From contig JACRFK010000003.1 of the NCBI GenBank assembly GCA_016217925.1, positions 271,656 to 335,655 on the forward strand: a DNA stretch of 64,000 nucleotides. The letters are read 5' to 3'. The notes beneath the pieces are model-generated. The model was given only the letters and a program-made list of their open reading frames with translations. It was not told the DNA's origin and searched no databases. Origin of the DNA: Candidatus Kaiserbacteria bacterium. GTDB taxonomy: Bacteria > Patescibacteriota > Minisyncoccia > Phycocordibacterales > UBA2100. Of this stretch, positions 4,894-57,186 are shown piece by piece. The position numbers were made by a program, and so were the translations under genes. The number at the start of each line of letters is the position of its first letter. Position 1 is the first letter of the stretch.

Positions 4894-5775
4894 TCAATCG
4901 TCAAGGAGACCTAGACGATAAATATCAAAAGAATTCTCGCCCTCGAACATGTCGGAAGGATTCGGGAGGTAGATGCGGCGGCGGGATATCTCGGTGGTTG
5001 CGTCGTTGATGAGCCGGTGAAAGATCTCGAATTCCTCCGAGACGGTTGTGTAGTCGATGATGTAGCGGCGCATTTGCGACGAGCCGTCGGCGTTCTTCCT
5101 TTTCTTGCATTCTTGCACGATAAACCTGCGCACCTCTTTGCCGTACTTTTGTTTGACCGTGTAGTAATTGAATATAGCTTGCATGACGAACAGGGTCTTC
5201 TGCCCGCGGCCCTTGCTGAAGGTGTCCACGAACTTGTGGTCCACGATGTCGAGCGCCCCCGGCTGCAGGCGTGATTCGACGACGAGGTCCGAAACTGCCT
5301 TGATGGGAAGCGGCAGGCCCTCGACATGCGCGAGGGCGACCACCTCGACGCCGAGCACTTTGTGCTTGGGCGCTCGCGCGAGGTAGAACTGAATCGCCTG
5401 CAGATAGTCACGCTCCATGTGAGCACGCTTTTCTTTTTGTGCGCGACGCGACTTTGCTTTGCCGAAATTAATCTCAAAATCCGCAACGTTGCGTAGGTAT
5501 TCGAGCCCCAGCTCCACCGAGCCTTCTTTTCCTCCGGGGGAGGATCCACCTCCGGCGGACCCTATCCCGCCATAATAGTGCTGAAGCGCCACATGCGCTG
5601 CACGACCAACAAGAGAAGAGGGATTGGCGGGTGTATCGTAGACTTTTTCGACGTAGCGCTTGTACCACGCGAGCGGATTGCGCAAAAATGCCATGAGCGA
5701 AGAATGGCTCCAGTGCTGTATGGGCAATGCCGTCTTGAGGCGGGCTTTCTTCTTCATGTGATTTTGCGAAATCAT
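4894..5775 (-). CDS. PD-(D/E)xK nuclease family protein (Cas4/RecB-like fold) carrying the in-frame mini-element
   Basis: N-terminal HWSHSSLMAFLRNPLAWYKRY and a D..D.K block (GALDIVDHKF) typical of PD-(D/E)xK nucleases. Contains GSAGGGSSPGGKEGS, encoded by the element at 5527-5560. Confidence 0.5.
   Translation of the reverse strand: MISQNHMKKKARLKTALPIQHWSHSSLMAFLRNPLAWYKRYVEKVYDTPANPSSLVGRAAHVALQHYYGGIGSAGGGSSPGGKEGSVELGLEYLRNVADFEINFGKAKSRRAQKEKRAHMERDYLQAIQFYLARAPKHKVLGVEVVALAHVEGLPLPIKAVSDLVVESRLQPGALDIVDHKFVDTFSKGRGQKTLFVMQAIFNYYTVKQKYGKEVRRFIVQECKKRKNADGSSQMRRYIIDYTTVSEEFEIFHRLINDATTEISRRRIYLPNPSDMFEGENSFDIYRLGLLDD
5527..5560 (+). repeat. Palindromic mini-element, family A copy (variant with GGATCCACC)
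   Basis: ttttcctccgggggaggatccacctccggcggac; in-frame within the nuclease gene. Confidence 0.7.
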
Positions 5776-5824
5776 GCCGCGTAATCGTCTATTAAAACGC
5801 GGCCTTATAGTATATACTGGACCG

Positions 5825-5944
5825 ATGGCAAAACGAGCAAGTCAGGATATTAAGAACAAAAAGTCGCGTTCGCGAAAGACGAAGAAACGCCTCGCAGCCA
5901 AGCGGGCTATGCTCGCCGCCCGCAAGGCAAAGAAGCGCCGTTAA
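5825..5944 (+). CDS. Possible very basic small protein (39 aa), not in the ORF track
   Basis: ATG..TAA ORF encoding MAKRASQDIKNKKSRSRKTKKRLAAKRAMLAARKAKKRR. Preceded by TATAGT/TATACT -10-like sequence. Composition resembles ribosomal-type basic proteins, but it is not assignable. Confidence 0.3.
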   Translation: MAKRASQDIKNKKSRSRKTKKRLAAKRAMLAARKAKKRR

Positions 5945-5960
5945 CAGAGCGGCGTTTTTC

Positions 5961-5993
5961 TTTGGACAAACACGGGGCAAGAAGGTAGCATTC
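5961..5993 (+). promoter_or_regulatory. Promoter-like motif TTTGGACAAA-N13-GGTAGCAT, 6 nt before the ATG of the 5998 gene
   Basis: The same bipartite motif recurs at 7771-7803, 8261-8291 and 8810-8840, and partially at 6813 and 7660. Confidence 0.4.
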
Positions 5994-5997
5994 GGCG

Positions 5998-6840: not shown

Positions 6841-6890
6841 AAGAAAGGCGCCCGTATTCCGTCCTCATGTAGGTAAGGCTTAAAAGCTAA

Positions 6891-7178
6891 TTGTGTAAAC
6901 ATATGACATTTACTCTCGTTTTGGGCGCGTTGCTCGGAGCCTTCGCGGTCGTCTTTGCGATGGACAACAGCGCACTCGTCACGGTGCATTTACTATCGTG
7001 GGAAGTAACCGCGCCGCTTGCAATTATACTTATGTCCGCAGTGGTGCTTGGTATTCTTGTGGTACTTATTGCAATGATCCCGCGGGCCATACAGCGCACG
7101 ATGGAGGAATACGCTGTTCGCCGCGAAAAGAGAAAGGTGGAGCTGGCCATGGTGAGAGAACAATCTCAGGCCGTCTGA
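6891..7178 (+). CDS. Small membrane protein, LapA/DUF1049-like
   Basis: Two TM helices followed by a basic tail (AIQRTMEEYAVRREKRKVELAMVREQSQAV). Confidence 0.4.
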   Translation: MCKHMTFTLVLGALLGAFAVVFAMDNSALVTVHLLSWEVTAPLAIILMSAVVLGILVVLIAMIPRAIQRTMEEYAVRREKRKVELAMVREQSQAV

Positions 7179-7207
7179 TTTGGCAAACCTGAGATGGGGG
7201 TATAGGA

Positions 7208-7770: not shown

Positions 7771-7803
7771 TTTCTAGACAAATATTCATGAGGGGGTAGC
7801 ATT
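7771..7803 (+). promoter_or_regulatory. Promoter-like motif (TTCTAGACAAA-N13-GGTAGCAT) before the HIT gene
   Basis: See 5961-5993. Confidence 0.35.
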
Positions 7804-8848: not shown

Positions 8849-10429
8849 ATGTCGTTTGGCTTACCGCAAGGTATAATCGATTTTTTTGATGTCGACAAAG
8901 CGATCGCACGAATAAAAAATGACCTCCAATCGGATTTCATTTACGCACCGCATTTGAATGCCATATACGCATTAGCGAAAACCGAACTACAGGCGGGACT
9001 CTTTGGAAAACTTGCAACTGGGACTTTTGACCCAAGTCTACCTGTTACTATTGAGGTGCCAAAAGCATCCGGGCTGGGAAGACCCGGATCCATACTCCTC
9101 CCCTACGAACGGTTAATCTATCAGCTTGTTGTCGATGATATCGCGGTAACTGCGGACCTTAATCTGGACAGGACTAGCGTGTTCAGTAATAAGCTGTTAA
9201 CGGCAGACCCCAATGGGTTTATGTTCGAACCCACGGGGGATTGTTATGCAGAATATAAGACCGCAATAGCAAGGCACGCCCAGAATCCGAGGTTTTCACA
9301 CGTGATACAGACCGACATAGTATCTCATTTTCAGAATTTAAATCAGCACAACTTAATTAACTTACTTACATCAGCTGGATGCAATGCTGACGAGGCAAAA
9401 TTTCTTGAAAGAATGCTTTCTCAACTTGCTGAAAAAAGTTCACGAGGGATTATTCAAGGTGTTATGCCCTCTGACTTCTTGGGGAACTTCTCTCTGTGCT
9501 CGATAGACGGTCAACTTGCCGTCAATGGTCTAACTTTTGCTCGGTACGTGGACGATATCTCCATCTTTCTAAACGGCGAACAGGAATGCCGATCGGTTAA
9601 ATTGAAGTTGTCGCACTGGCTGCGTAAAGAAGGCTTGGACTTGAGTGAAGCAAAAACAAAGGTGCTGCCGGTAGCCGCTTTCCTTCAAGAAGAGACGCGG
9701 GTCGAGCAGATGTTTGATGAAGCAAAGGACGAACTGTCCGGGTCGTTCGATAGAAATGATTTTTATCGATCAGCAATTTCGTGGGACTTTCCGCAGGACG
9801 ACGACGAGGAGGCGGATGACCAAGAGGTGATTTTGTTGGCCACACGAAATCTATTCGACATGAATGTTGATGTTTCAGTAAAGGATAAAATCGATAAGTT
9901 TTGTATTCCAACATTCATCGCATCGTTCGATGATTACGCGATTAATGCTCTCCTAACAAGATTCATTTCTCGACCTCACTTAGCACAGTTATATGCGAAA
10001 TATTTCCGAAGAATGATTACAGTTGGCCATTTGAATGCAGCTCGACTTGAACCATTACTAGCGGATCAAACTATTATTTCGGAATATCAATATATGTGGC
10101 TCTACGCTGCTCTCATGGTTGTAGAGCCAGGCCGAGTCGGCCGACCAAGTATTGCGTTTGCACTCCAACAATACAGAAATGCGAATATTTCCCCTTCGTT
10201 GAGGGCGGTATCTGCAATATTTGTCGCGAAATACGGTACCCCTGTAGAAAAAAGATTAATTAAGGACAGTTATGCCCAAGAACAGTCCGACTACGTGAGA
10301 GCTGCAATTTTATATTCGGCTCGATACTTCACGGCAGCGGAACGTGCAACGTGTTATCGCGCCTGGGGCGGGCATAGCGAACTTAACTCCCTCGTTGTGA
10401 GCGCGTCGAGAAATACTCCCGCCGCTTGA
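8849..10429 (+). CDS. Reverse transcriptase, unclassified (Abi/UG-like), with ~240-aa alpha-helical C-terminal extension
   Basis: RT motifs 1-2 (IEVPKASGLGRPGSILLPYERLIYQLVVDDI), 3 (HVIQTDIVSHFQNLN), 4 (GIIQGVMPSDFLGNF), C (YVDD in FARYVDDISIF) and 7 (KTKVLPV). No maturase, retron VTG or nitrilase/HEPN domain was seen. GC is lower than the surroundings. Confidence 0.75.
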   Translation: MSFGLPQGIIDFFDVDKAIARIKNDLQSDFIYAPHLNAIYALAKTELQAGLFGKLATGTFDPSLPVTIEVPKASGLGRPGSILLPYERLIYQLVVDDIAVTADLNLDRTSVFSNKLLTADPNGFMFEPTGDCYAEYKTAIARHAQNPRFSHVIQTDIVSHFQNLNQHNLINLLTSAGCNADEAKFLERMLSQLAEKSSRGIIQGVMPSDFLGNFSLCSIDGQLAVNGLTFARYVDDISIFLNGEQECRSVKLKLSHWLRKEGLDLSEAKTKVLPVAAFLQEETRVEQMFDEAKDELSGSFDRNDFYRSAISWDFPQDDDEEADDQEVILLATRNLFDMNVDVSVKDKIDKFCIPTFIASFDDYAINALLTRFISRPHLAQLYAKYFRRMITVGHLNAARLEPLLADQTIISEYQYMWLYAALMVVEPGRVGRPSIAFALQQYRNANISPSLRAVSAIFVAKYGTPVEKRLIKDSYAQEQSDYVRAAILYSARYFTAAERATCYRAWGGHSELNSLVVSASRNTPAA

Positions 10430-11737: not shown

Positions 11738-11810
11738 CCTCCTCTTCTTCGAGGGTTACTCATGCACACAGAGTCTTACCACTCTCGAGCTTGCCTTACT
11801 CTTTTCCTCC

Positions 11811-11850
11811 GAAGGAGGACCCTCCTCTGGAGGGCAAAATAAGCCGCAGG
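11811..11850 (+). repeat. Family A mini-element, divergent intergenic copy between rpoD and dnaG
   Basis: ttttcctccgaaggaggaccctcctctggagggcaaaa. Confidence 0.55.
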
Positions 11851-11868: not shown

Positions 11869-13665
11869 CTACACGTTCTCGTGCAGTTGCGCAATGCGAG
11901 TTGTCAACAGTTTACACACACCCATGAGCCGAGTCACCTCCTCCTCGTCCTTCCCGTTTTCAGCCTTCTTTAGAGCCATGGTAGCGTCATCGAGCTCGGC
12001 GGCGAGAAGTTCTTTGAGGATAACTACGAGCAGGGCTTTGGTCTCGCGTTCAGGGTTCGTACTTTTGCCGTGCAGTTTTTCGGCGGAAAATCGGAGCGCC
12101 TCCCGCTCGCTTTCGGTGAGCGTGGAGAGGCTTGCAAAGGCCTCCGGCCCTATCGCCGTCTCAAGTTCGGTCGCATATGCCGCGACATCTATCGAGGGCT
12201 TCTCCAGTGATTGCTGCCACAGGAGTATGGAGAAAGCCTGGCGGGCGCGGCTCGACGCACGGGTGCTTCGCCACGATGTTTTTGGATCAACTTTCGGCAC
12301 GGAGGCCGGAGCGACCGCACTTGCCGGGCCCGGTGAGGTTGGAAGCTTCCCAAGCGCTTCGCCGACCGCTGATTCGGAGACTCCGAGCCTTCGCGCTATC
12401 TCGTGCACATGCTGTTCGCGCGCTATCGGACTTTGCACATCGGACAGAAACGGCAGCACTATCGTTTCTACCGCGCGCCGGAAGCGATCCTTCTGGGGCA
12501 GATGCTCTTCAAGCACTTCGAGGAGGAATAGGATGATGTCTTTTGAATCTCGTATCGCTTTTTTCCACGCATCCGCGCCTTCTTTTCCTCCTGAGGAGGA
12601 TCCGCCTCCGGCGGACTGAATTAAATCCGCAGGGTCGAGCCCCGTCGGCAGCCGCGCGACTTTTACGTTGAGCCCACCTTGGAGCGCGGTGCGCGCAGCG
12701 CGTCCCGCCGCCTTGATACCCGCCTCATCAGCATCGAGCGCGAGCACGAGGTTGTCCGTCATGCGGCGAATGAGGGCTGCATGCTCAGGCGTAAACGCCG
12801 TGCCCGAGACGGCGACGGTATTCGCCCACCCGGCCTGGTGCGAGGCCAGCAGGTCCATCTGACCTTCCACCAGAACCGCGCAATTGAGCTTCCGGATGGC
12901 GACTTTTGCCCTATCAAAGCCATATAATACGCGGGATTTGTGGAAAAGCGGCGTCTCGGGGCTGTTGAGGTACTTGGGCGCATCGGGCGAGGCTGCCTCG
13001 CCGAAGATGCGGCCGGAAAAGCCGACGACGCGGCCCGCGGAGTCGGCAATGGGAAAGATGATGCGGTAGCGGAAGTTGTCGGTGAGAGAGCCCCGTTCGT
13101 TCTTCTTGGCGACACCCGCTTCGAGCATCTCCCGCTCGGTATATTTTCCTCCGGAGGAGGATCCGCCTCCGGCGGATTTCATTTTCAAATAATCGGAAAG
13201 TTCGGACCAACTATCCCCCGCGAGACCGAGACGGAATGATTGTATGGTCGCATCGGTCATGCCGCGCCCTTTCAGGTACTTCTTCGCCGCATCGTTGAGG
13301 CGTGAGGTATAAAAAATCGTTGCAGTCTCCAAAAGCTCGAACAGTCGCTCGCGTTCGTCTTTCTTCTCTTTGCCGCCGCGTTCGTAGACCAACTCTACTC
13401 CCGCCTTTTCCGCGAGCACTTTGAGCGCACCTTTGAAGTCGAGGCCCTCGATAGCTTCGACAAAAGAAAAAATATCCCCGCCGACGTTGCAGCCGAAACA
13501 GTGATACGTGCCCCGCTCCGGCGACACATGGAAAGAGGGCGTTCGCTCCGCGTGAAAAGGACACCGCGCGCGCAAGGAAGCGCCCGCGCGCTGCAGCTTC
13601 ACGTATTGCGACACCACGTCGACGATCGAGAGCCTATCTTTGATTTGTTGTACCGTATCCGCCAT
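11869..13665 (-). CDS. dnaG: DNA primase DnaG with two in-frame mini-element insertions
   Basis: Zinc finger CPFHAERTPSFHVSPERGTYHCFGCNVGGD; TOPRIM EGQMDLL...ALDADEAG. Insertions SAGGGSSSGGKYTE and SAGGGSSSGGKEGA. Confidence 0.85.
   Translation of the reverse strand: MADTVQQIKDRLSIVDVVSQYVKLQRAGASLRARCPFHAERTPSFHVSPERGTYHCFGCNVGGDIFSFVEAIEGLDFKGALKVLAEKAGVELVYERGGKEKKDERERLFELLETATIFYTSRLNDAAKKYLKGRGMTDATIQSFRLGLAGDSWSELSDYLKMKSAGGGSSSGGKYTEREMLEAGVAKKNERGSLTDNFRYRIIFPIADSAGRVVGFSGRIFGEAASPDAPKYLNSPETPLFHKSRVLYGFDRAKVAIRKLNCAVLVEGQMDLLASHQAGWANTVAVSGTAFTPEHAALIRRMTDNLVLALDADEAGIKAAGRAARTALQGGLNVKVARLPTGLDPADLIQSAGGGSSSGGKEGADAWKKAIRDSKDIILFLLEVLEEHLPQKDRFRRAVETIVLPFLSDVQSPIAREQHVHEIARRLGVSESAVGEALGKLPTSPGPASAVAPASVPKVDPKTSWRSTRASSRARQAFSILLWQQSLEKPSIDVAAYATELETAIGPEAFASLSTLTESEREALRFSAEKLHGKSTNPERETKALLVVILKELLAAELDDATMALKKAENGKDEEEVTRLMGVCKLLTTRIAQLHENV
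12581..12620 (+). repeat. Family A mini-element copy in dnaG
   Basis: tcttttcctcctgaggaggatccgcctccggcggactgaa. Confidence 0.75.
13141..13180 (+). repeat. Family A mini-element copy in dnaG
   Basis: atattttcctccggaggaggatccgcctccggcggatttc, the consensus copy. Confidence 0.75.
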
Positions 13666-14048: not shown

Positions 14049-14106
14049 GGCTACCGCTCAACTGACTCCTTGCGGCTCTGGCTTTCAGGCACTTCTTCGG
14101 GTGCGG
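14049..14106 (-). repeat. Displaced duplicate of the rpoC 3' end (57 bp), candidate att-type direct repeat
   Basis: About 90% identical to 16391-16448. On the minus strand it encodes [17 protein letters not shown]-stop. All differences from the rpoC copy fall at third codon positions. Confidence 0.6.
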
Positions 14107-14114
14107 TTAGGTCT

Positions 14115-14150
14115 ATTGTTTATCTCGTCCGGCCGGATAAATTAAACAAT
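14115..14150 (+). repeat. 36-nt hairpin element ATTGTTTATCTCGTCCGGCCGGATAAATTAAACAAT (direct repeat 1)
   Basis: 8-bp stem ATTGTTTA/TAAACAAT around an inner TCCGGCCGGA palindrome. 7 nt from the stop of the 14158..14745 gene. Confidence 0.5.
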
Positions 14151-14157
14151 AAGAGCT

Positions 14158-14745
14158 TCATTCGGGCAGGAGGCCAAATTCCTTTCGCAGAGGAGCATCG
14201 TACTCAATCGCATCTGCAATGATGTAAAGTAAGTCTTTACCGATGTGCAATTCCGCTTTGAGAAGAGCCACTGCCTCCTCGCAGTCGTACGGATACGCCC
14301 AAACACTGTCTTGTAGACGGACAAAGCCGAACCCTGCAACGATTCCCCGCGCCCGTGCACGAAGGACATGTTTCTTTTCAGGAATATCAAAGATGACCAA
14401 CCGCCATTTGCCATCCCATCGACTCGGCCTGGGCAACGGGCCGAAGGATACAAGAGATCCGAGTCTTTTCCTCCCCTTCTCAGTTATACGCAAGTAGACC
14501 CGGCCATGGTCACGCACGAATTCGACAAAACCTTTATTCTTGAGCCGGTAGGTCGCCTCGCGAACGCGTTGTTTAGGGTCACGCTTTGCGATCCAGTCGG
14601 GGTCAAGATGCTTGAGAAGCCGCAGTGCATTGGGCGCCGCCATCGCTACGAGACCGATGCCGGCAATCGCGAGTCCGGAGAGGATTGCCTGCTCAATCTG
14701 TCCGCGTCGTGTACCTTTCTTCGAGGTCCGCTCCATTCTTCCCAT
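14158..14745 (-). CDS. PaaX-like winged-helix regulator (PaaX_C/Cas2-like C-terminal motif)
   Basis: WDGKWRLVIFDIPEKKHVLRARARGIVAGFGFVRLQDSVWAYP matches the PaaX C-terminal signature. Precisely flanked by the 36-nt hairpin repeats. Confidence 0.5.
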   Translation of the reverse strand: MGRMERTSKKGTRRGQIEQAILSGLAIAGIGLVAMAAPNALRLLKHLDPDWIAKRDPKQRVREATYRLKNKGFVEFVRDHGRVYLRITEKGRKRLGSLVSFGPLPRPSRWDGKWRLVIFDIPEKKHVLRARARGIVAGFGFVRLQDSVWAYPYDCEEAVALLKAELHIGKDLLYIIADAIEYDAPLRKEFGLLPE

Positions 14746-14781
14746 ATTGTTTATCTTATCCGGTCGGATGCGTTAAACAAT
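14746..14781 (+). repeat. 36-nt hairpin element (direct repeat 2), abutting the start codon of the PaaX-like gene
   Basis: attgtttatcttatccggtcggatgcgttaaacaat. Confidence 0.5.
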
Positions 14782-14882
14782 GGAGGTTTTCCACACTAGA
14801 TATACACCCGCAGATGTTCATAAAACAAAGAAGGGCAGCCCGTGAGCCGCCCCTCCTTAACCTCTCAACGTTTTGCGGGTTT

Positions 14883-15350
14883 CTACCGCGTACACCGTGT
14901 CTTGACCCCGGCCGCGATATGCGTGAGGGCATCGACGATTGCTTTTCGCTTCACGTTGCCCTTCTTGAAGACCATCACGGTCTCGGGCGCGCCGCGGAAC
15001 CATCGGACAAGAACGGCGACTTTGCCGTTCTCCACCTCGACAACATGGCCCGATAGATCCGGCTGATGCCGGGGCTCGAAAGCGTGTTGGGACGACCCAA
15101 AGCCTGAACATGCGTGCTTGATGATGTCACGCTCCAGGTCGTCGCTCTTCACTTCTTGCAGCAAACGCAACAATGGGCTTGTCGACACACCAGGCTGTTG
15201 CCAGCCATGCATGCCCATCACACTTTCGGCACCTGTAGCCGAGTCGGGCGACAGTGTGCGCGGCCTGGGCTGCTGTCCTGCAGTCGTCATCTTGGTATTC
15301 CCCCTTTTTTCCGCTGGATAGGGTCTAATTCCCCTCCAGTCCGCAGGCAC
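14883..15350 (-). CDS. Hypothetical protein (islet cargo)
   Basis: ORF only; no motif recognised. Confidence 0.3.
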   Translation of the reverse strand: MPADWRGIRPYPAEKRGNTKMTTAGQQPRPRTLSPDSATGAESVMGMHGWQQPGVSTSPLLRLLQEVKSDDLERDIIKHACSGFGSSQHAFEPRHQPDLSGHVVEVENGKVAVLVRWFRGAPETVMVFKKGNVKRKAIVDALTHIAAGVKTRCTR

Positions 15351-15436
15351 TATGCCACTTAATTACGTATCAGGCAATTACCGCTCATTTGTTATGCTCT
15401 TTTGAGGGGCAATGGTAAATTTGTCGCACTTGAACT

Positions 15437-15793
15437 ATGCCGCCTAAGAATCCTTTAGGGTTTGGAGAAAGAATGTTGCGCCAACGGGCGAAAGAGGGCG
15501 GAAAATCCCGGGAGCAGATGACTGCGGAGCGGGACCAAAAGATGTATATCTCGAATTTATTGCGGGAAAACAAGACAAACATTGACGGGCAGTGGAAAGA
15601 GGCGCGGGACAGGAAAGTGGGCGCCTTTATTATCACAGCTGACCACCTCACAGCGAACGGGCTTCTTTCGGACATGGAAGTAGCCACCGTTATCCGCAGA
15701 TGGATGTTTGACACGTATGGCGACCAACTCGCCCTGGACAGATACGACGGCGCGACCGGGCATATACGATTTCTGGTTTCCGAGTCTGAATAG
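15437..15793 (+). CDS. Hypothetical protein (islet cargo)
   Basis: ORF only. Confidence 0.3.
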   Translation: MPPKNPLGFGERMLRQRAKEGGKSREQMTAERDQKMYISNLLRENKTNIDGQWKEARDRKVGAFIITADHLTANGLLSDMEVATVIRRWMFDTYGDQLALDRYDGATGHIRFLVSESE

Positions 15794-15889
15794 GAACTGA
15801 CCGCAGCCCCCTTTGCGGCAAGCATTAAAATACGCCGCCCCGGGCCTGCTCAGCGGCCCGGGGCGATGTCGAGGTCACATACTGCGAGA

Positions 15890-16312
15890 TTACTTGGCGT
15901 CCATCGCGTCGCACGCTTCATGTGCGAGGCCGCAGGTAAATGCGCGCAGGGCGACATGGACATTGCCGTGCGTGACGTCGCCTTGCATGCGCACCTCGAT
16001 GTTGTGATTGGGCCGATCGCGGTACGGGACGAGAATCATTATCCGCCCCCGCGTGGGGCCCATGCCCCAACCGCATACGACTGCATCGCGCCATGGACCA
16101 CCCGCGTCGGACTTGGGAACGACCGATTCGCGGGGAATATAGTTCTTGGCGTGGCCCATAGCCTTGCGTAGCATCCGGCCCGTGGCTTCGGGTCCGCGGC
16201 ACATCCGCAGTAGCATCGGCGGAATGTGGCCGTCGTACACCTTCCAGTCGGCCTCTGCCGGCGGAGGGTTCGCAGCGGCAGCTGCCGCTGCCGTGGGTTG
16301 CGTTTTGTGCAT
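15890..16312 (-). CDS. Hypothetical protein (islet cargo), Ala-rich N-terminus; possible peptidase-like His/Asp pattern
   Basis: ORF; weak H..D..H pattern (HGNVHVALRAF...LAHEACD). Confidence 0.3.
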   Translation of the reverse strand: MHKTQPTAAAAAAANPPPAEADWKVYDGHIPPMLLRMCRGPEATGRMLRKAMGHAKNYIPRESVVPKSDAGGPWRDAVVCGWGMGPTRGRIMILVPYRDRPNHNIEVRMQGDVTHGNVHVALRAFTCGLAHEACDAMDAK

Positions 16313-16390
16313 TGACGTGTCCTCGGTTCAAAAGCACACAGGGCTATCCCCTGTTGCTCGGGGCTTCTTATATCACATCCGGCGGGCAGA

Positions 16391-16448
16391 GGCTACCGCT
16401 CGACAGACTCCTTGCGACTCTGGCTTTCGGGCACTTCCACGGGTGCCG
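16391..16448 (-). repeat. rpoC 3'-terminal 57 bp, partner of the 14049-14106 direct repeat
   Basis: Encodes the rpoC C-terminal [20 protein letters not shown]. Confidence 0.6.
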
Positions 16449-19400
16449 CAGCGGCGAACTCAGCTTCCATTTGTTCTATCATCGCGTGCTTCTTGCTTCC
16501 CTTGAATCCGGTACCGGCGGGAATAAGGCGGCCAATGATGACATTTTCCTTGAGACCCACGAGGCGGTCCACGGCGCCCGAAACGGCGGCCTCGGCGAGT
16601 TTGCGCGGAGTGTTCTGGAAGGAGATGGCCGAAAGGAAGGACGCACGTGTGAGGGATACTTCGGTAATACCGAGCAGGAGCTGTTTGCCTTTAGCCGGCT
16701 CGCCTTCCACTTCTTTCTGCACTTTGTTGATACGTTCGAATTCGAAGTCGGCGACGATTTCCCCTGCGGAGACCCCCGTGTCGCCGGAAGTCGTGACGGA
16801 TACGCGCGAGAACATCTGTTTGACGATAACCTCCAAATGCTTGCGGCCGGTGGATACTCCCTGGAGCTCGTAGATGCGCGTGATTTCGTTGATGATGTAT
16901 TGCTGTGCACGCTCCTTGCCCGCGAGCAGGAAAAGCTCTTCGAGGTCGGCGGAGCCGTCGGTGAGGAAGTCGCCCTTTTCTACCTTGGCGCCCTTCTTCA
17001 CCAAGATGGTGCGGAGCGGATGCACGCGGTATTCGGTCTCTTTCTTTTGGGCTTTTGCGGTCTTGGCAAGTGAAGCGACATCCGGGACGATGGTGATGAC
17101 CGTCTCAGCTCCGTCCTTCTCGATATCGGCAATGATGCCCGTAACGCGCGAGATGGTGGCGGGGAGCTTGGGTGCGCGCGTCTCGAAGACTTCCTCGACG
17201 CGCGGCAGACCCATGGTGATGTCTCCGCCTGCGGTGGCGACGCCTCCCGTGTGGAAGGTACGCATCGTGAGCTGAGTTCCCGGCTCGCCGATGGCTTGCG
17301 CGGCGATGACGCCTATTGCTTCACCCACGTCCACAATCTCGCCGGTCGTGAGGTCCATGCCGTAGCACTTCTGGCAGACGCCGCGTGCGACTTTGCATGT
17401 CATAGGCGAGCGCACAGTAACTTCTGTCGCCTTGCTTTCTTCGACAGCTTTAGCATCGTCGCGATTCAAGAGGTGGTTGCGCTTTCCGCCGAAGGCGGAT
17501 CCGCCTCTGGCGGAGAAGCCCTCAATATCTGCGGCAAGTACGCGGCCGTTCACGCGGTCGGCAAAAGAGCCGCCGATGTTCTCTTTGCCGGGACGATTGA
17601 TGACGACCCCCTCTTTGGTGCCGCAGTCATTTTCGAGAACGACGACGTCGTGCGCGACGTCGAAGAGACGGCGTGTGAGATACCCGGCGCGTGCCGTGTT
17701 GAGCGCGGTGTCGGCAAGACCTTTGCGCGCACCGTGCGTCGAGATGAAGTATTCGATTGGGGTGAGACCTTCTTTCAAGCTAGAGGTGATGGGGAATTCG
17801 ATGATCTCTCCGCGCGGGTTGGTGATGAGGCCTTTCATACCCACCATTTGGTGAAGCTGGACGACGGAACCGCGGGCACCGGAAGTGATCATGTCGTGCA
17901 CGGGACCGGTGCGGTCGAGCGCGTCAACAACGTGCTTGCGCAATTCGCCGGAGACCTTGCCCCAGATCTCAACCGTCATGCGGCGGCGTTCGTCTTCAGT
18001 GAGAAGCCCTTGATTAAAGTTCTCGAGCTCTTTCGCCGCTTGTTCACGTCCCGTTTTTACCATCTCCTCCTTCACGCTTGGAATGACGATGTCCGAGATT
18101 GCCCAGGTGATACCGGCGTAGGTCGCATAGCGGAAGCCGAATGCTTTTATTTTGTCCAAAATGGCGGGGATGCCGTCGAGACTGTAATGCGTAACGAGAT
18201 TTTGCACCAAGGCGCCCATGCGCTTGTTGGTTATTTCTTCGTTCAAGTACGGGAAGTCGTTGGGAAGGACGGAGTTGAAGAGGAGGCGACCGACGGTCGT
18301 CTCGAAAACTTTGCCTTCGTATTGCCCGTATTTCTTATTTTCGGTCGGGAGCACCTTTATCTTGGCGCGCAAGTCCACCGCGCCAAAATCGTGCGCGGTA
18401 ATAGCGGCGTTAGTCGAAGGAAATGCGCTTCCCTCACCTTTCAGACCATCAACGGACTTCGTCATCCAGTAGCATCCCAAGACGATGTCGAGGAGCTTGG
18501 ATGCGACAACGACGTCGCCGCTTCCTGGCTTCAAGATGTTCTTATTGGCGGACATCATCATGCGCGCCTCCATCTGAGCGGCTTCGGAGAGCGGCACGTG
18601 GACGGCCATCGCGTCGCCGTCGAAGTCAGCGTTGTAGGCCGGACAGACGAGCGGGTGTACCTGGATTGCGTTGCCTTCGATTAAGACCGGGCGGAACGCC
18701 TGGATGGACTGGCGGTGCAGCGTCGGCGCGCGGTTCAAGAGTACGTACTTGTCTTTAATCGCTTCTTCGAGAATCGGCCACACTTCAGGAGCTTCGTCTT
18801 CGATAAGACGGCCCGCGCCGCGGATGTTGTAGGCGAGTTCGCGCGCAAGCAAGCCCTGAATGACGAATGGACGGAAAAGTTCGAGCACCATGTGCTTCGG
18901 AAGACCGCATTCGTCGAGTGCCAAGTCCGGACCGACGACGATGACGGAACGGCCCGAGTAGTCCACGCGTTTACCGAGCAGGTTCTGACGGAGATAGCCG
19001 TGCTTACCTTTGAGGTAATCGGCGAGCGATTTCAGCGCGCGGCGGCGGCCTCCGAGGATGCCCAAGACACCTGCGCCGCGGCGCATGGAATTGTCGAGGA
19101 GCGCGTCCACAGCTTCCTGCAGAATGCGCTTTTCGTTGCGGAGGATGACTTCCGGCGCGTGGATGGCGAGCAATCGCTTGAGGCGATTGTTACGGTTGAT
19201 GACGCGGCGGTAGAGGTCGTTGAGGTCCGACGATGCGTGACGGCCGCCTTCGAGGGCGACCATGGGGCGCAGCGCCGGCGGCACGACTGGAAGACGCGTC
19301 ATGAACATCCACTCCGGGCGCACACCCGCGCGCTGCAAGCTCTCGGCGAGGCCGAGGCGTTTGCGGAGTTTGTCGCGGTCCGCGGCACCCGAGTTTTCGT

Positions 19401-20130
19401 ACTCTTCCTTCACCTTCTTGATGAAGACGTTGATGTCGATATTTTTCAAAATACTGTAGAGGGCCTCGGCGCCGATAGCAGCGCGGAACATCGCGCCGTA
19501 TTTGACGGCAAAGAGGTGATACGCAGCCTCGTCGAGGACCACGCCCTGACGGATAGATTCGATCTCCTTCTTCGCTTTCGTCGCGCGCTCTTTGAGGTCG
19601 GTCTTTATTTCAGCAGTCGCGGCGGCTTTGTTCTTGGTCGCAAATTCATGCTCCAATTCCTTGAGAAGGCGCTCGCGTTCTTTCTCATCGACATGCGTGA
19701 CGATGTAGCCCGCGAAGTAGACGACCTTTTCCACTTCTGCAGCCGAAAGGCCGAGCATAAGCGCGATGCGCGAAGGAATACCGCGCAGGAACCAGATGTG
19801 CGAGACAGGGGTCGCCAAGTCGATGTGGCCCATGCGCTCGCGCCGGACGATGGCGCGGGTAATTTCGACACCGCATTTTTCACAGACGATGCCGCGGAAA
19901 CGGATGCCCCGGTATTTCCCGCAGTAACATTCGTAGTCTTTTTCAGGTCCGAAGACACGCTCGTCGAAGAGACCGTTCTTCTCGGGTCGCTGCGTGCGGT
20001 AGTTGATGGTCTCCGGCTTGGTTATCTCACCAAAACTCCACTCATGTACGCGGTCGGGAGAGGCGAGGCGCATTGCGACCGCTTCGAAGTCCTGTGGGAT
20101 GACGTCTTTTTTACGTTGCATAATTTTCAA
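16393..20130 (-). CDS. rpoC: DNA-directed RNA polymerase beta' subunit with in-frame mini-element
   Basis: [12 protein letters not shown] catalytic motif; zinc finger [20 protein letters not shown]. Insertion [13 protein letters not shown] at 17481-17520. Confidence 0.95.
17481..17520 (+). repeat. Family A mini-element copy in rpoC (variant)
   Basis: gctttccgccgaaggcggatccgcctctggcggagaagcc. Confidence 0.65.
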
Positions 20131-41709: not shown

Positions 41710-42389
41710 AGAATATTTGTGCTCGCGATGCCGACGTACTCGGCCTCGACGATGAAGCGCGCGCTCTTGCCGGTGAGTATGTCGCAGGTCGTGAGCGTGA
41801 GCTTCGTACCCTGTGCTGCCGAGAGGTCAATGACGGTCTCATTCACATCTACCGAGCGCACGGAAGTGACCGAGTAGAGATACTCAACGCCACCGCCTTC
41901 GACCGAAATTGAATCGCCCGGCTTCAACTCCGAAATGCGGTTGAACACCTTGTACATCGGATTGCGGACGACCTTGTAGGTGGACGAGTGCCCGAATATA
42001 AGCATGTTGCCCGGCACTCCGAGCTTTGCCGAATCCACGTAGCGTGTGGGACTTTTGAGTATGGCGGCGGCGAGGCTGTCGAGGTCACGCGTACCAGGGT
42101 TTTGGATAACCGCATCGAGACCTATCGCGGCACTCTTGATGCGCTCCGGAAGAATGCCTTGCGGTGCCGCGGGGGATTCTCCTGTCGTTTTGTATAGTTC
42201 ACTCAGTTGCGGAAGGTCCGAGAGCGCGACCGTCTCGCTCGTCGACTTTTTCTCTGGAGGCATGCCATCGATATAGGACGGAACGAAGCCGATCGAATCA
42301 GCGGCGCTCACGGTGGAGAAGAAAATCACAACAACCGCGGCAAAAAAGACGCGTTTGGGTGGCTTGTTACTCTGAACTTGTGTATTCAT
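41706..42389 (-). CDS. Sortase family transpeptidase
   Basis: TLxTC catalytic motif (LTLTTCD), conserved His (LIFGHSS), N-terminal membrane anchor. Confidence 0.6.
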   Translation of the reverse strand: MNTQVQSNKPPKRVFFAAVVVIFFSTVSAADSIGFVPSYIDGMPPEKKSTSETVALSDLPQLSELYKTTGESPAAPQGILPERIKSAAIGLDAVIQNPGTRDLDSLAAAILKSPTRYVDSAKLGVPGNMLIFGHSSTYKVVRNPMYKVFNRISELKPGDSISVEGGGVEYLYSVTSVRSVDVNETVIDLSAAQGTKLTLTTCDILTGKSARFIVEAEYVGIASTNIL

Positions 42390-43241: not shown

Positions 43242-45350
43242 TTAAATGTCCAACGTTGCCTCTTTGGCGTGACTCTGGATGAACGATTTGCGCGCGGGGA
43301 CGTCGGTACCCATGAGCATGTCGAATACCATGTCGGCCTCTTGCGCGTCTTCGATGCTCACCTGCAAAAGGATGCGCCGAGCCGGGTCCATCGTGGTCTC
43401 CCACAATTCTTCGGAGTTCATTTCCCCCAGACCTTTGTAGCGTTGCACGGATACTTTCGCGACCTTCCCGACGCTCCGACCTTCGTCGGAGGTCGGGACC
43501 CCGGCATCGACTTCGTCGAGCGTCGGGGCTTCGAGCGGCACATCCTTACCGACGAGCTTTATGCGTTCATCGTCGGAGTAGGCGTAATGTATCTCCTTGC
43601 CCTTGCGTACCTTGAAAAGCGGTGGCTGCGCGATGTAGAGGAATCCGCCGTCCACAACGGGCCGGAAGTGGCGGAAAAAGAGCGTCAGCAAGAGCGTGCG
43701 GATGTGTGCGCCATCCACGTCGGCATCGGTCGCGATGATTATTTTGTGATAGCGCAACTTGGTGACGTCGAAGATGTCGCCTATCGCGGTGCCAAGTGCG
43801 ACCACGAGATTACGTATCTGCTCTGATGCGAGCATTTTGTCTATGCGGGCGCGTTCGATGTTGAGAATCTTCCCGCGTAATGGAAGCACCGCTTGGATGC
43901 GGCGGTCGCGACCCATTTTGGCGGTACCGCCAGCTGAATCCCCCTCGACGATGAAAAGCTCGGACTCTGAAGCGTCTTTGGTCTGGCAATCGGCGAGCTT
44001 GCCCGGGAGCGTCATGCCGTCCAAGGCACCTTTGCGCATGATGCTGTCTTTGGCGGCTTTTGCGGCTTTACGCGCTTTCATCGCGAGCGTGATCTTCCCG
44101 AATATCGCACGTGCCTCCTCCGGATGCTCTTCGAGGAATGTACTGAATGCTTCTCCGAAAACAGTCTCGACAGCGCCGCGCGCCTCAACGCTCCCTAGCT
44201 TGCCCTTGGTCTGGCCTTCGAACTGGATCTCGCGTAATTTCACCGATACTACGGCGGTCAAGCCTTCGAGCGCATCGTCACCGGTAAAGCTGTCGCTTTC
44301 TTTTCCTCCGGAAGAGGATCCGCCTTTGGCGGAGCCGTTTCCATTATGAGAGTTCAGCGTGCGCGTGAGCGCGGTCTTGAATCCGGTGATGTGCGTGCCA
44401 CCTTCGGCGTTGTAAATATTGTTTGCAAATGCGGAGATGCGCGAGGTTATGTCGTCCACGTACTGTAATGCGACTTCAACGTGCACGCCGTCTTGCTCTT
44501 TCTCTACATAAAAGACGGTCTTGTGGATGGTCTCGAGGTGATGATTTTGGAACGAGACGAGACTACGCAAACCGCCCTCGAAGTAAAACGTAACGGACGG
44601 CGCATCTAGCCCCTTTGTGCCGGAGGCACCGACCGGTAAGTCGCGCAGATAAAATACTTCTTCGTCGTCTACTTTCTCCACTTTGCGCAGATCGAGTATC
44701 GAGATGCGGAGTCCTTTGACCAAGTACGCCTGTTGGCGCATGTGGGAAACGATGGTATCCCAGTTCAATTCTCTGTCCGGAAATATGGAAGGGTCTGATT
44801 CGAAGGTAATGATGGTGCCGTGCAGTTTTGAAGTACCTATTTTTTTGGTCTTGCCGACCGGTTTTCCGCCATTTTTATACTCTTGAATATACTGACCGCC
44901 GTCGCGATGCACTTCCGCGCGAAGGCGCGTTGATAGAGCGTTGACCACAGAGACTCCCACGCCGTGCAAACCGCCAGAGACTTTGTACCCCTCGCCGCCG
45001 AATTTTCCTCCGGCGTGAAGCATCGTCATCACTGTCTCGAGCGTCGAAACCTTAGTCTTCGGATGTATCTCTACCGGAATGCCGCGGCCGTTGTCGGCGA
45101 CGCGTATGCGATTGTCCGGAAGAAGTGCGACCTCCACATCATTGGCGAAGTCGCCCATCGCTTCGTCGCGTGAGTTGTCGAACACTTCCCAGACGAGGTG
45201 ATGGAGGCCTGCGGTACCCGTGGTACCGATGTACATGCCCGGACGGCGGCGCACGGCTTCCAACCCCTCAAGAACGGTAATGTCAGAGGCTCCATAGGAG
45301 CCTGTTTTTGCCGCCTTTTCCGGGGCCTTTTTTGCCTTCTTTTCAGCCAT
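43242..45350 (-). CDS. gyrB: DNA gyrase subunit B with in-frame mini-element
   Basis: GHKL ATPase (LHHLVWEVFDNSRDEAM, GGLHGVGVSVVNALS), TOPRIM (IVEGDSAGG). Insertion SAKGGSSSGGKESD at 44300-44337. Confidence 0.9.
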   Translation of the reverse strand: MAEKKAKKAPEKAAKTGSYGASDITVLEGLEAVRRRPGMYIGTTGTAGLHHLVWEVFDNSRDEAMGDFANDVEVALLPDNRIRVADNGRGIPVEIHPKTKVSTLETVMTMLHAGGKFGGEGYKVSGGLHGVGVSVVNALSTRLRAEVHRDGGQYIQEYKNGGKPVGKTKKIGTSKLHGTIITFESDPSIFPDRELNWDTIVSHMRQQAYLVKGLRISILDLRKVEKVDDEEVFYLRDLPVGASGTKGLDAPSVTFYFEGGLRSLVSFQNHHLETIHKTVFYVEKEQDGVHVEVALQYVDDITSRISAFANNIYNAEGGTHITGFKTALTRTLNSHNGNGSAKGGSSSGGKESDSFTGDDALEGLTAVVSVKLREIQFEGQTKGKLGSVEARGAVETVFGEAFSTFLEEHPEEARAIFGKITLAMKARKAAKAAKDSIMRKGALDGMTLPGKLADCQTKDASESELFIVEGDSAGGTAKMGRDRRIQAVLPLRGKILNIERARIDKMLASEQIRNLVVALGTAIGDIFDVTKLRYHKIIIATDADVDGAHIRTLLLTLFFRHFRPVVDGGFLYIAQPPLFKVRKGKEIHYAYSDDERIKLVGKDVPLEAPTLDEVDAGVPTSDEGRSVGKVAKVSVQRYKGLGEMNSEELWETTMDPARRILLQVSIEDAQEADMVFDMLMGTDVPARKSFIQSHAKEATLDI
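44300..44337 (+). repeat. Family A mini-element copy in gyrB (variant)
   Basis: cttttcctccggaagaggatccgcctttggcggagccg. Confidence 0.7.
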
Positions 45351-54760: not shown

Positions 54761-54813
54761 AGCGTAAGTATAGCGCCGAGCCGTGCATGGCACGGCTCGG
54801 CGCAACAATGTCG

Positions 54814-55095
54814 TTACTTTTTGGAGGTCTTCGGCTTCGAGGTAATCTTCGTGGATGCGGCGCGCTTCTTGAACTTGTCTACACGTCCCGCAGTATCAAT
54901 GGTTTTGGCCGTGCCTGTATAAAAAGGGTGCGACGCACTCGAAATTTCCACCTGAAAGATAGGGTATTCTTTGCCGTCGTCCCACTTGTCCTTTTTCGTT
55001 GTCTCTATCGTTGAACCAATAAGATACCGCTTCCCCGAAGTGGAGTCTTCGAAGATGACCTGTCGGTATGTATCCGGATGAATGTCTTTTTTCAT
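54814..55095 (-). CDS. rpmE: 50S ribosomal protein L31 (type B) with C-terminal basic extension
   Basis: [29 protein letters not shown]...HPFYTG. Confidence 0.8.
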
Positions 55096-55142
55096 GACTG
55101 GCAGAGAATACACGAAAAATCGAAAAAAGACAATGCTTGGCG

Positions 55143-56480
55143 TCACTGGTTCAAAATATCTATCTCGGCCTGTATCTTATCCACCAGCTCCATGACGCTG
55201 TCCCCGTAGAACGCGTTGGCGCGGCTATTCCAATTGCTACCTGCAAAATACTTCAACGCCGCACGACGTTCCGCCGTGCGTGTGCCTTCGGCGGCACCGT
55301 TGTCTTTCATGAGAAGTCCGGTCGCTAAGATGGCCGTTTGTGCATTCCATGGATCCGGGAAGTCGACACCGGTCTGCGAAGAGAGCCGCGCCTTATAGAG
55401 CATCCAGGTAGAAGGGATGAATTGCGAAGGGCCCATTGCGCCGCCATATCCGATCGACTGCGGACACGATACCTGCGTTGTCGTCCAGTCCAAGCCAAGC
55501 GCTTGCGTAATGGTAACGAACGGCTCTGTATCTCGCGGCGCTTTCATGACCTTCGCGAACGCTTTGCCCGTGTTTTTCCCCACACCGCTGCCCGTCGCGA
55601 GATCGCGCACATAGCACGAACCGGTATTTTCCCCCAAGTTGGATTCTTGTGTAAGAATCGCAAGAATGAGTGCGGGGCGTACGCCTGTGTTGCTCGATGC
55701 CTTTTTTGCGTAGTCGTAGGCGGTGCCAAAGGGGATGGCTCCGCTGTCCCTCAGACCGAAGAGTGCGGCCCGTATGGCGGCGGCCTGCTTTTTCTTGTTG
55801 GCGATTATCTGTTGATATGTTTTCTCTTGACCCTTGGTCGCCGAGAGGATGGCTTGCTTCTCTTTTTCGTCTTTCAGCACTGCCTGCTTCGCAAGCACTT
55901 GTACCTGTCGCACCTTTTGTGCCTCGTCTTCTTTATCTTCGAGTGCCGCCTTGTGGCCTGAAAGTTCTTCGCGCAAAGCAGCCATCTCGATAAAAGATTC
56001 GCCGAGCGATTTTTGAATGGATTGGAAATCGTCTATATCCTGGAAAAATTGCTCCAGGCTCTCGCCGAGCGCGAGTTGTGTGAGTGACACGTCGTCTATC
56101 TCGCGCGTGCGCCGCAGAAGTTGGGCGAGCGACGCTTCGCTTCGCGCTACTTTGGCATCCACCTGAACAATGGATTGCTGCTTCTCGATGATATTCCCTT
56201 TGAGCTGCGTGAGTGTGGTATCGCTCTTCTTGATCTGGAGCTGGGCGATGCGTATTTTGTTGTCGAGTATTTTGATGTCGCGTTCAAGCGTCGTACGCTC
56301 TGCCTGCAGGGTACTCAGAGTCCCCTGATTGTTGGCAATATCTTTCTCTATCTGGTCGAGCTGAGCCTGGAGCGCGGCGCGCTGCTCCAGAGACGTCTGG
56401 GCATAGGTGTACACGGGCAGCACAAAGCAGCCCGTCAATAACAGGGAAACTACAAAAAAAGCGGCGCCTGGGGTGCGCAT
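55143..56480 (-). CDS. Membrane-anchored coiled-coil protein with C-terminal SLT/lytic transglycosylase-like domain
   Basis: [13 protein letters not shown] and [13 protein letters not shown]. Start taken at [11 protein letters not shown] to avoid overlap with rplY. Confidence 0.5.
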
Positions 56481-56508
56481 ATACCCAATACTAGCATTTT
56501 CCACGGGT

Positions 56509-57186
56509 CTACTTCTCCGGTTTTTCCCCTTTTCCGCCGGAGGCGGACCCGCCTTCGGCGGGTGCAGCTCCGCCCTCTCCCTCTGCAGGAGCTTTTTCGG
56601 TCGTAATGATGGTCTCCGGCGCCGGCGTGATCTCTTCCTTCTCTTCTTTGAACTCCGTGACGGACGCGACGATCTCTTCGCCGTGTGTGATGAGCGAGGC
56701 GCTTCCCGGCAGAGCAATCTGGGCGGCCGTTATGTGGTCGCCGACGTTCTCGAGCTTCACGAGGTCCACGGAAAGATGGTGCGGTAATTCTGCCGGCGCG
56801 ACCTCTATTTCAATCTCGTGGAGTGCTTTCACGACGATGTGGCCCGCCTTTTCCGCGGGAGCGACTCCCTCGAATTCAAGTGGTACTTTTATCTTGATCT
56901 TCTTTCCTTTCTCGAGCACATAAAAATCCGCATGCAGAAGCGCACCGGTAACGGGGTTGAACTGGGCATCGTGAATGAGCGTGTCCTTGTCTTCACCCAG
57001 CCCTTTTAGCGTGACGATGGTCGTTTCCCCCGCCTCGCGCCAGACGTGGGCAAGCTTGCGCGCATCCACCGAGATCGGCGTCGCCGCTTCTTTGGGACCG
57101 TAGAAAACGGCCGGTACGGCACCGAGCTTACGCAGCGTATCTGCGGATTCATTCTCCACTCGCGGTTTGACTTCAAGCGCTAACAT
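56509..57186 (-). CDS. rplY: 50S ribosomal protein L25 / general stress protein Ctc with mini-element in the C-terminal tail
   Basis: L25 N-terminal fold (RKLGAVPAVFYG...) and beta-barrel. Tail [16 protein letters not shown] encoded at 56529-56568. Confidence 0.8.
   Translation of the reverse strand: MLALEVKPRVENESADTLRKLGAVPAVFYGPKEAATPISVDARKLAHVWREAGETTIVTLKGLGEDKDTLIHDAQFNPVTGALLHADFYVLEKGKKIKIKVPLEFEGVAPAEKAGHIVVKALHEIEIEVAPAELPHHLSVDLVKLENVGDHITAAQIALPGSASLITHGEEIVASVTEFKEEKEEITPAPETIITTEKAPAEGEGGAAPAEGGSASGGKGEKPEK
56529..56568 (+). repeat. Family A mini-element copy (divergent) in rplY
   Basis: cttttccgccggaggcggacccgccttcggcgggtgcagc. Confidence 0.55.

Follow-up and report, generated by a model that had tools for sequence, protein, structure and literature searches.

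Within a 64,000-nucleotide stretch of the genome of a Candidatus Kaiserbacteria bacterium (contig JACRFK010000003.1, positions 271,656 to 335,655; hereafter the window), the same short GC-rich word recurs in several unrelated housekeeping genes. Comparison with related genomes showed that this word belongs to a family of 30-bp non-coding double hairpins that were inserted as a unit, both in genes and in intergenic spacers. We consider it probable, at about 0.6, that the family is a non-autonomous mini-element, either similar to the repetitive extragenic palindromes (REPs) and their REPIN doublets or of the double-hairpin type, which is moved in trans and kept only where it encodes a loop rich in Gly and Ser.

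A preliminary description of the window had reported eight occurrences of a palindromic 33-mer, all in one orientation, and had proposed that they were in-frame insertions of one nucleotide element. When the window was searched with that 33-mer, allowing up to three mismatches, five matches were obtained, against an expectation of zero from 100 dinucleotide shuffles. Relaxing the limit to six mismatches gave eight copies, all on the plus strand, which deviate from the originally reported consensus by 0-6 mismatches and in which the 33-mer starts at 5527, 11802, 12583, 13144, 17482, 25111, 44301 and 56530. The number of copies was thus confirmed, and the claim that the word is over-represented relative to composition was borne out by a vast excess, over the shuffles in the window and also in the genome contigs. 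Seven of the copies are at the places originally given, but the second lies at 11802-11834 and not at 11811-11850. Seven of the eight fall within minus-strand open reading frames (ORFs), each at codon phase 0, and their translations have the general form S/P-A/S-x-G-G-S-S/A-x-G-G-K. Pfam assigned the host genes as a PDDEXK_1 nuclease, DnaG (two copies), RpoC, TrmD, GyrB and L25, in agreement with the earlier assignment, and the eighth copy is truly intergenic. Isolated single hairpins or 15-mers of the same type were not present in the window, and an Rfam scan at gathering thresholds returned one tRNA and no match for the element. The 30-nt cores of the copies are located as follows:

Copy 1: 5530-5559, minus strand; PD-(D/E)xK nuclease gene (4894-5775); encodes SAGGGSSPGG, with the Lys codon AAA at 5527-5529; stem 1 holds one G.T wobble.
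Copy 2: 11805-11834, minus strand; intergenic, between the dnaG stop (11869) and the rpoD start, with AAA at 11802-11804; variant CCCTCC-AGA-GGAGGG TCCTCC-TTC-GGAGGA, with compensated changes in both stems.
Copy 3: 12586-12615, minus strand; dnaG (11869-13665), after the TOPRIM domain; encodes SAGGGSSSGG, with the Lys codon at 12583-12585.
Copy 4: 13147-13176, minus strand; dnaG, N-terminal part of the catalytic core; encodes SAGGGSSSGG, with the Lys codon at 13144-13146.
Copy 5: 17485-17514, minus strand; rpoC (16393-20130), between the bridge helix and the trigger loop, with the Lys codon AAG at 17482-17484.
Copy 6: 25114-25143, minus strand; trmD (24841-25548); encodes SAGGGSSFGG, with the Lys codon AAG at 25111-25113.
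Copy 7: 44304-44333, minus strand; gyrB (43242-45350), in a transducer-domain loop; encodes SAKGGSSSGG, with the Lys codon at 44301-44303.
Copy 8: 56533-56562, minus strand; rplY/L25 (56509-57186), in the C-terminal tail, with the Lys codon at 56530-56532; stem 1 is a compensated C-G variant, CCCGCC/GGCGGG.

The exact inserted unit was defined by comparing filled and empty sites. Metagenome contigs were scanned with RpoC, which yielded 80 syntenic loci from relatives (loci are given L-numbers) with RpoC identities ranging from 97% down to 58%. Nucleotide alignment of filled against empty alleles showed that the insertion is exactly 30 nt, TCCGCC-NNA-GGCGGA-TCCGCC-TNN-GGCGGA. Each genic copy except that in rplY, six of the seven in all, could be matched to an empty allele, the boundaries were unambiguous, and there was no target-site duplication at any of the six sites compared. 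The AAA/AAG 'tail', originally taken to be part of a 33-nt unit, belongs to the host gene as a Lys codon, which the empty alleles have as well. For rpoC the filled sequence, GGC TTC (30 nt) AAG CGC, occurs only in the window and in L121 (97% RpoC identity), whereas L122 (96%), L123, L143 and L124-L129 have the empty GGC TTC AAG CGC. Exactly 30 nt were likewise missing from the nuclease, trmD and both dnaG sites in close relatives (RpoC 88-96% identical, as for the rpoC site itself). The nuclease site is empty, reading GGG/AAA across the junction, in L125, L136, L145, L124, L123 and L143. At the site of copy 3 in dnaG, L121, L122 and L123 are empty (CAG/AAA), and a distant Kaiserbacteria metagenome-assembled genome (MAG), L001, is filled and carries a compensated stem change. 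The site of copy 4 is filled in the window, L121 and L027 and empty (AAG/AAG) in L122 and L123. The trmD site is empty in the nearer L121, L143, L123, L125 and L124, but the same site is filled in the distant L140 (RpoC 77%). For gyrB, a codon alignment with close orthologues fetched by protein placed the 30 nt between GGC and AAA; of 120 GyrB orthologues, 12 are filled at this site and the other 108 are empty, reading ..NGGGKESD... The reciprocal case was also found, with dnaE filled in L062 and empty in the window, and orthologous copies recur in independent assemblies from different projects (the window, L121, L027, L001 and L203-L210). The spacer around the intergenic copy 2 is not conserved in L122, L123, L143 and L124. 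The orthologue alignments thus place 30-nt indels at the exact element boundaries for six genic sites, and they support the original proposal of in-frame insertion of a single nucleotide element into unrelated housekeeping genes.

Each 15-nt half of the unit forms a hairpin with a 6-bp stem and a 3-nt loop, and the whole 30-mer is nearly palindromic about its central GGATCC. Among 116 distinct copies, 61 of 130 deviating pairs were Watson-Crick compensated when the unit was modelled as two hairpins, compared with only 13 of 136 when it was modelled as a single long one. A single long hairpin was rejected on the basis of this covariation, even though RNA energy parameters favour it for perfect copies; the palindromic halves drawn in the preliminary description must also give way to the two 15-nt hairpins. 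The variable pairs, T1-A15 changing to C-G and G4-C12 changing to T-A, are exactly those in which one partner is the third position of a Gly codon, so that the choice of Gly codon tracks the Ser, Ala or Pro codon opposite. The loop codons are similarly restricted, the first being NNA and the second TNN irrespective of the amino acid encoded, and most loops are RRA and TYY, which are related by transitions to GGA and TCC. When seven of the window copies were folded as single-stranded DNA, six gave two hairpins, with energies of -7.4 to -13.1 kcal/mol; the second stem was shortened in the copy at 44304.

Two loci contained rearranged forms of the unit. At 1413-1442 of L091 the order of the loops is swapped (TCCGCC-TTC-GGCGGA TCCGCC-GTA-GGCGGA), a circular permutation such as would be expected if a circular or dumbbell form had been opened at the other junction. 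In an intergenic region of L006 (300-600), composite GC-rich hairpin repeats reuse the single 15-mer TCCGCCTCTGGCGGA fused to AGACYTRCCCTGAGCGAAGTCGAAGGGCGATCTCGCA; this fusion is present in two copies 199 nt apart, with a tRNA-like gene (recognised by eye) as neighbour, and shows that the hairpin module also occurs outside the 30-nt doublet. In about 2 Mb of loci, the 18 isolated hairpins found do not pair around a larger parent element.

Insertion is directed to a short and asymmetric target. Among 20 copies from the window and its relatives that had been found without any requirement on the flanks, 18 had AAR on one side, and the insertion point lies directly 5' of this AAA or AAG (3' of YTT when the complementary strand is read). 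On the far side of the element T is preferred at -2, though less strongly (62 of 99 copies). In copies whose two hairpins differ, the TCC-type hairpin adjoins the AAR in 11-13 cases and the other in 1, so insertion is polar despite the symmetric-looking core. The single orientation originally reported therefore holds for all copies in the window, but it is largely a by-product of the side on which the AAR lies and of gene strand, because the target is a Lys codon and every host gene is on the minus strand; the intrinsic polarity is a weaker effect.

Overall, 118 of 167 copies lie in long ORFs and, counting either strand, 97 of these 118 are in the frame that encodes SAxGG. Within the window's genes only 44% of the AAR trinucleotides on the sense strand fall in phase 0, so a selective filter is needed in addition to the target preference. 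Copies followed by Lys and copies preceded by Phe or Leu occur in a ratio of 47:18, which matches the 673:311 ratio of available phase-0 sites, so that the data call for no bias with respect to the direction of transcription. The positions occupied within the proteins agree with the earlier suggestion that the inserts would fall in surface loops, in that they correspond to gaps or variable loops relative to solved structures of TrmD, DnaG, GyrB and beta'. The insert in TrmD is an exact 10-residue gap relative to Haemophilus influenzae TrmD (4ypw), both inserts in DnaG fall in gaps relative to the Aquifex primase (2au3), and that in RpoC lies in a variable surface segment relative to Bacillus subtilis beta'. 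In L033, a host from outside the candidate phyla radiation (CPR), the copy in a GH13 protein lies outside the part that can be aligned to solved structures. Translational bypass, in the style of the mitochondrial 'byps', was considered and rejected, as the length is a multiple of three, the retained frame is open and the take-off and landing codons are mismatched.

The family is not confined to Kaiserbacteria. A degenerate pattern searched against contigs representing one genome per species matched at least 120 loci, whereas by our own estimate about 0.14 would be expected for sequence of that size and uniform composition. By phylum label, the matches listed comprise about 55 from CPR/Patescibacteria, 16 from Omnitrophota, 14 from the Planctomycetes-Verrucomicrobia-Chlamydiae (PVC) group (Kiritimatiellae, Lentisphaerae, Planctomycetes and Verrucomicrobiota) and 12 from MAGs labelled 'Gammaproteobacteria', with others from Ignavibacteria, Bacteroidota, Melainabacteria, Firestonebacteria, Chloroflexota and a Desulfotomaculaceae MAG. 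All of the matches listed (at least 120) are from MAGs or single-amplified genomes; the copies are internal to their contigs, some of which exceed 1 Mb and include contigs of long-read MAGs. The stems are unchanged across hosts with GC contents of 35-64%. The host proteins, 74 of which match 139 Pfam families, include DnaK, RpoB, RpoC, RecG-type helicases, Pol I and many aminoacyl-tRNA synthetases, and the copies have no common position among unrelated host genes. Peptide-level searches found SAxGGSAxGG almost only with these exact codons. Among phages and plasmids, the carriers were one viral contig and no plasmid, the plasmid collection being derived from sequenced isolates. Our literature searches turned up no account of this sequence, and none of an element of this kind from CPR or the related phyla.

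The distribution of copies among close relatives points to recent movement. The 64-kb window holds eight copies, compared with 13 in the 1.28 Mb of the 80 related loci, and such sharp differences in copy number between close relatives indicate that the family was recently active in this Kaiserbacteria lineage. In the 120 GyrB orthologues 17 insertions were counted, which occupy five or six different sites and in every case precede a Lys, and at the site used in the window at least seven gains or losses were counted on a neighbour-joining tree of the orthologues. In five orthologous gyrB copies, differences affect 0-1 of the 9 four-fold sites, compared with 39-58% across the gene, which is close to saturation (P down to 0.001), and the loops are identical (AAA/TCC) in four gyrB lineages. 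The L211 copy at the same site is instead decaying at about the neutral rate (TCC GGG AGA GGC GGA GCT TCC TCG GGA GGG), so resident copies can degenerate; L211 gyrB (240-2357) has two copies, this decayed one and an intact one near the N-terminus (261-290). The flanks of the window's gyrB copy have different affinities: the 60 nt upstream have 95% identity to the filled L203 and 76% to L209, which is empty and otherwise the closest, and the downstream flank is identical to L209. At the sequence level this mosaic reads as a short recombination tract ending at the element, and filled alleles seem to be passed among related lineages through homologous recombination over short tracts. A shared flank was also seen at the trmD site, where the window and the distant L140 both have FKV.

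If the element is moved in trans, as we think probable, insertion would occur at AAR sites irrespective of frame. As 30 is a multiple of three and the unit has no stop codon in any frame, save for a few loop variants, most copies never truncate the host protein. Selection would then retain mainly phase-0 insertions, in which the AAR is a Lys codon and the insert would be read as a flexible S-A-x-G-G-S-A-x-G-G loop at a surface or linker position, rather than as R-x-R-R-I-R... or P-P-x-A-D-P-P.... The mobilising activity would be a structure-specific enzyme acting on single-stranded DNA and recognising both hairpins. The best candidate is an HUH/Y1-type transposase, such as those of the IS200/IS605 insertion sequences, of their palindrome-associated derivatives (PATEs) and of the REP/REPIN system with its REP-associated tyrosine transposase (RAYT); it is suggested by the lack of a duplication, the short fixed target on one strand, the terminal hairpins and the polarity. 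A closed 30-nt circle would form a perfect 12-bp dumbbell and is a plausible intermediate, and the seamless excision carried out by HUH/Y1 systems would explain both the clean empty sites and the patchy distribution.

Several observations weigh against this reading. The larger ORFs of the window have no Y1/HUH domain, and when IS200 TnpA and RAYT sequences (approximate queries) were searched by phmmer against about 2 Mb of loci, one IS200 only was detected, in L076, which lies 0.7 kb from a copy and has end hairpins unrelated to the element. The cleavage points would be flush with the feet of the hairpins, leaving no room for the guide sequences used by an IS608-type TnpA, and the GTAG/CGTC tag of REPs is absent. 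A selfish copy should decay neutrally, yet the five gyrB copies are nearly unchanged at synonymous sites, and this calls for selection at the level of the host, for gene conversion, or for cycles in which copies are excised and inserted again. In addition, it is difficult to account for near-identical stems in phyla of 35-64% GC unless these share a horizontally moving driver, of which none was seen, and the recurrent filling of identical sites could stem from recombination alone. A bolder view, which we advance only tentatively and would not bet on, is that the family represents the smallest known mobile DNA and a class not previously described, with a seamless integration 5' of AAR that fits no characterised transposase family, the ability to cross phyla and a constraint at the nucleotide level within essential genes. 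If so, the hairpins would have a function in the host, or there would be a continuing cycle of excision and re-insertion or of homing, and phyla would be crossed among uncultivated groundwater and lake bacteria, including CPR, Omnitrophota, PVC and others.

The conservation of the gyrB copies can also be taken at face value. The motif would then have arisen by insertion but would now be kept by purifying selection on the double hairpin in DNA or RNA, possible roles being a nucleoid- or topoisomerase-type binding site, a signal for mRNA stability or processing, or a translational pause at domain boundaries. This would account for synonymous sites in gyrB that are conserved far beyond the gene-wide rate, for compensated changes in the stems, for the occurrence of the same stems in many phyla and for the reuse of the single 15-mer hairpin in the L006 composite repeats. 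We nevertheless regard it as unlikely, since most close relatives do without a copy at every site examined, the orthologous L211 copy decays roughly neutrally, the sites are scattered over unrelated genes with no shared position, and gene conversion or re-insertion can also yield conservation. Gene conversion is at the centre of another explanation, in which filled alleles convert empty ones in a homing-like process, possibly through a nuclease that cuts the empty N^AAR site, and true transposition is rare. The mosaic flanks in gyrB, the FKV flank common to the window and L140 at the trmD site, the identical AAA/TCC loops in four gyrB lineages and the phylogenetic patchiness are all consistent with such conversion. 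What it cannot do is create many sites, and there are eight in the window, five or six among the GyrB orthologues and 139 host families; moreover, no endonuclease candidate was identified and the evidence from mosaicism amounts to one 60-nt tract, so that we judge it improbable as the main process.

The remaining two possibilities carry little weight. In one, a nicked end (...YTT-3'OH) would anneal to AAR in an RNA copy of the element and prime a 30-nt cDNA by target-primed reverse transcription, the driver being the reverse transcriptase of class UG20 encoded at 8849-10429 of the window. The polarity of YTT followed by the element fits priming on an AAA-tailed template, and the enzyme is specific to the window's lineage, being absent from the syntenic relatives, which have few elements. 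But no reverse transcriptase was found near any of about 150 other copies, and the homologues that carry names are from cultured Alphaproteobacteria and Flavobacteria (most homologues being unnamed metagenomic sequences), while the element is absent from the plasmid collection derived from isolates. As target-primed reverse transcription would also leave the sharp 5' boundary and the lack of duplications and truncations unexplained, this enzyme is very unlikely to be the driver. The other possibility is that no element exists, and that the segments are ancient or convergent Gly/Ser linkers or artefacts of assembly or sequencing. The peptide is of low complexity and rich in Gly and Ser, as natural linkers are, and the data are assemblies of short-read metagenomes. 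Close relatives nevertheless differ by the exact presence or absence of 30 nt, unrelated genes share identical codons with fixed third positions, and the same orthologous copies occur in independent assemblies from different projects and in the interior of contigs, including long-read MAG contigs of more than 1 Mb. The preliminary description had already argued against convergent linkers, and the relatives, which hold no such segment written in unrelated codons, together with the near restriction of the peptide to these codons, agree with it; the linker and artefact readings are refuted for practical purposes.

Several other features of the window were noted. The UG20 gene (8849-10429, plus strand) encodes a 526-aa protein that matches PADLOC RT_UG20 over its full length (E=2e-163); reverse transcriptases of this class are associated with defence. 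The gene lies between a GNAT acetyltransferase gene and rpoD and was missing from all syntenic relatives fetched. Between rpoC and dnaG there is an island of about 2.3 kb (14049-16446), where L121 and L122 have rpoC followed directly by dnaG. At either boundary stands one copy of a 56-nt direct repeat (14049-14104 and 16391-16446; 89% identity), a duplication of the 3' end of rpoC, and the island looks like an integrated element that used the end of rpoC as its attachment site. Of the four small ORFs in the island, three had no Pfam, PHROGs or PADLOC match and the fourth (15890-16312) no Pfam or PHROGs match. A small gene with a PaaX central (Cas2-like) domain (14158-14745) is bracketed on each side by a palindrome of about 35-37 nt (span 14114-14781); this arrangement, which may be a mobile or autoregulated cassette, is found again in relatives, at other positions in the genome and with lineage-specific palindromes (L203 8030-8780, L207 2520-3250 and L208 15300-16040). 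DnaE (33458-36652 in the window; 2621-5959 in L062) carries other lineage-specific inserts rich in Gly, Ala, Ser and Pro at different positions ('VRGDASNGAG' in the window, 'PVRSSPPPRPFGRASAGATSNGAG' and 'GGACPVAPPKEDGTGVSSGTASAP' in L062), which may belong to other insert families. Imperfect tandem repeats, with an 18-nt period in about 10 copies and with 39-nt and 48-nt periods, occur at 41170-41524 and 39220-39527 in minus-strand ORFs that lack a Pfam match and adjoin a sortase gene (41706-42389); these are probably repetitive surface proteins. An ORF for an SLT-domain transglycosylase (55143-56717), when read from its first TTG, shares 209 nt with the 3' end of rplY, the element copy among them, and its true start is probably further downstream. 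Among the unannotated ORFs of the window, PHROGs and PADLOC gave no candidate relevant to the element.

If confirmed, these results would mean that core proteins such as RNA polymerase, primase, gyrase, TrmD, aminoacyl-tRNA synthetases and DnaK are routinely invaded by a mobile sequence of nearly harmless design, 30 nt long, free of stop codons save in a few loop variants and read as Gly and Ser in the retained frame. The element would provide a natural map of the insertion-tolerant loops of essential proteins, and it could serve to trace recent gene flow and recombination in uncultivated lineages. It is also a tractable case for studying how non-coding hairpin elements move, alongside REPs lacking RAYTs, mitochondrial GC clusters and double-hairpin elements, and its precise, duplication-free integration next to Lys codons points to an enzyme of potentially useful specificity. 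In practical terms, such inserts inflate apparent divergence and indel counts in the phylogenetic marker genes of CPR and related phyla.

Among known systems, REPs and REPINs are similar in being short (20-40 nt), GC-rich, non-coding palindromes of high copy number that often form head-to-head dimers (PMC3733652; PMC8049555), and a Y1 transposase is thought to move REPs in trans. The element agrees with the REP palindrome definition, having two inverted 15-nt palindromic units in 30 nt. It differs in lacking a GTAG/CGTC tag at either end, where the flanks are host sequence, in having 6-bp stems with 3-nt loops and no spacer between the units, in being mostly genic (7 of 8 copies in the window and 118 of 167 overall) where REPs are predominantly extragenic, and in combining a defined AAR target with the same sequence across many phyla. 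Neither the window nor the roughly 2 Mb of loci searched gave a match to a RAYT query, itself approximate. With the IS200/IS605 family and PATEs the element shares several traits: target sites are not duplicated, insertion takes place beside a short and specific sequence of one strand, each end has a hairpin, and the polarity is fixed. Those elements, however, carry linker or guide sequences, measure at least about 100 nt and have a TnpA gene in the genome, whereas here the hairpins are terminal and abut the junctions, and no matching resident insertion sequence was seen in the available sequence. A miniature inverted-repeat transposable element was rejected: the halves are inverted repeats, but there is no duplication at the six sites compared.

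The Rickettsia palindromic elements (RPEs), cited originally as the closest precedent, are likewise palindromic in-frame inserts at tolerated positions in functional and often essential proteins. RPE-1 measures about 100-150 bp, and RPEs are confined to Rickettsia and its relatives and have no known Lys-codon target. The present element is set apart from them by its length (30 nt) and its hosts (Kaiserbacteria and other MAG phyla), and also encodes a different peptide. RPEs are thus a fair functional precedent, but shorter intragenic REP dimers have already been described inside replication and repair genes, some of them translated (PMC3733652). With RPEs and these dimers in view, in-frame palindromic inserts are a known kind of thing, and their presence in core replication genes, at first thought unusual, is not unprecedented (PMC3733652). 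PARCELs are palindromic coding repeats that can be read on both strands and have spread horizontally among unrelated microbes (PMC2996958). Unlike the single 30-nt inserts in housekeeping genes described here, they are longer tandem intragenic repeats that build surface proteins. The mitochondrial double-hairpin elements, the GC clusters of yeast and the byps are all tiny and GC-rich, fold into two hairpins and are mobile without an identified enzyme. Like the element, they and the coding palindromes of Nematomorpha (PMC6649704) occur in spacers and in genes, sometimes in frame. They are organellar and of other sequences, and byps, over which the ribosome jumps, can have lengths that are not divisible by three. 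By analogy, and in form only, it is the mitochondrial double-hairpin elements and GC clusters that the Kaiserbacteria element seems to resemble most.

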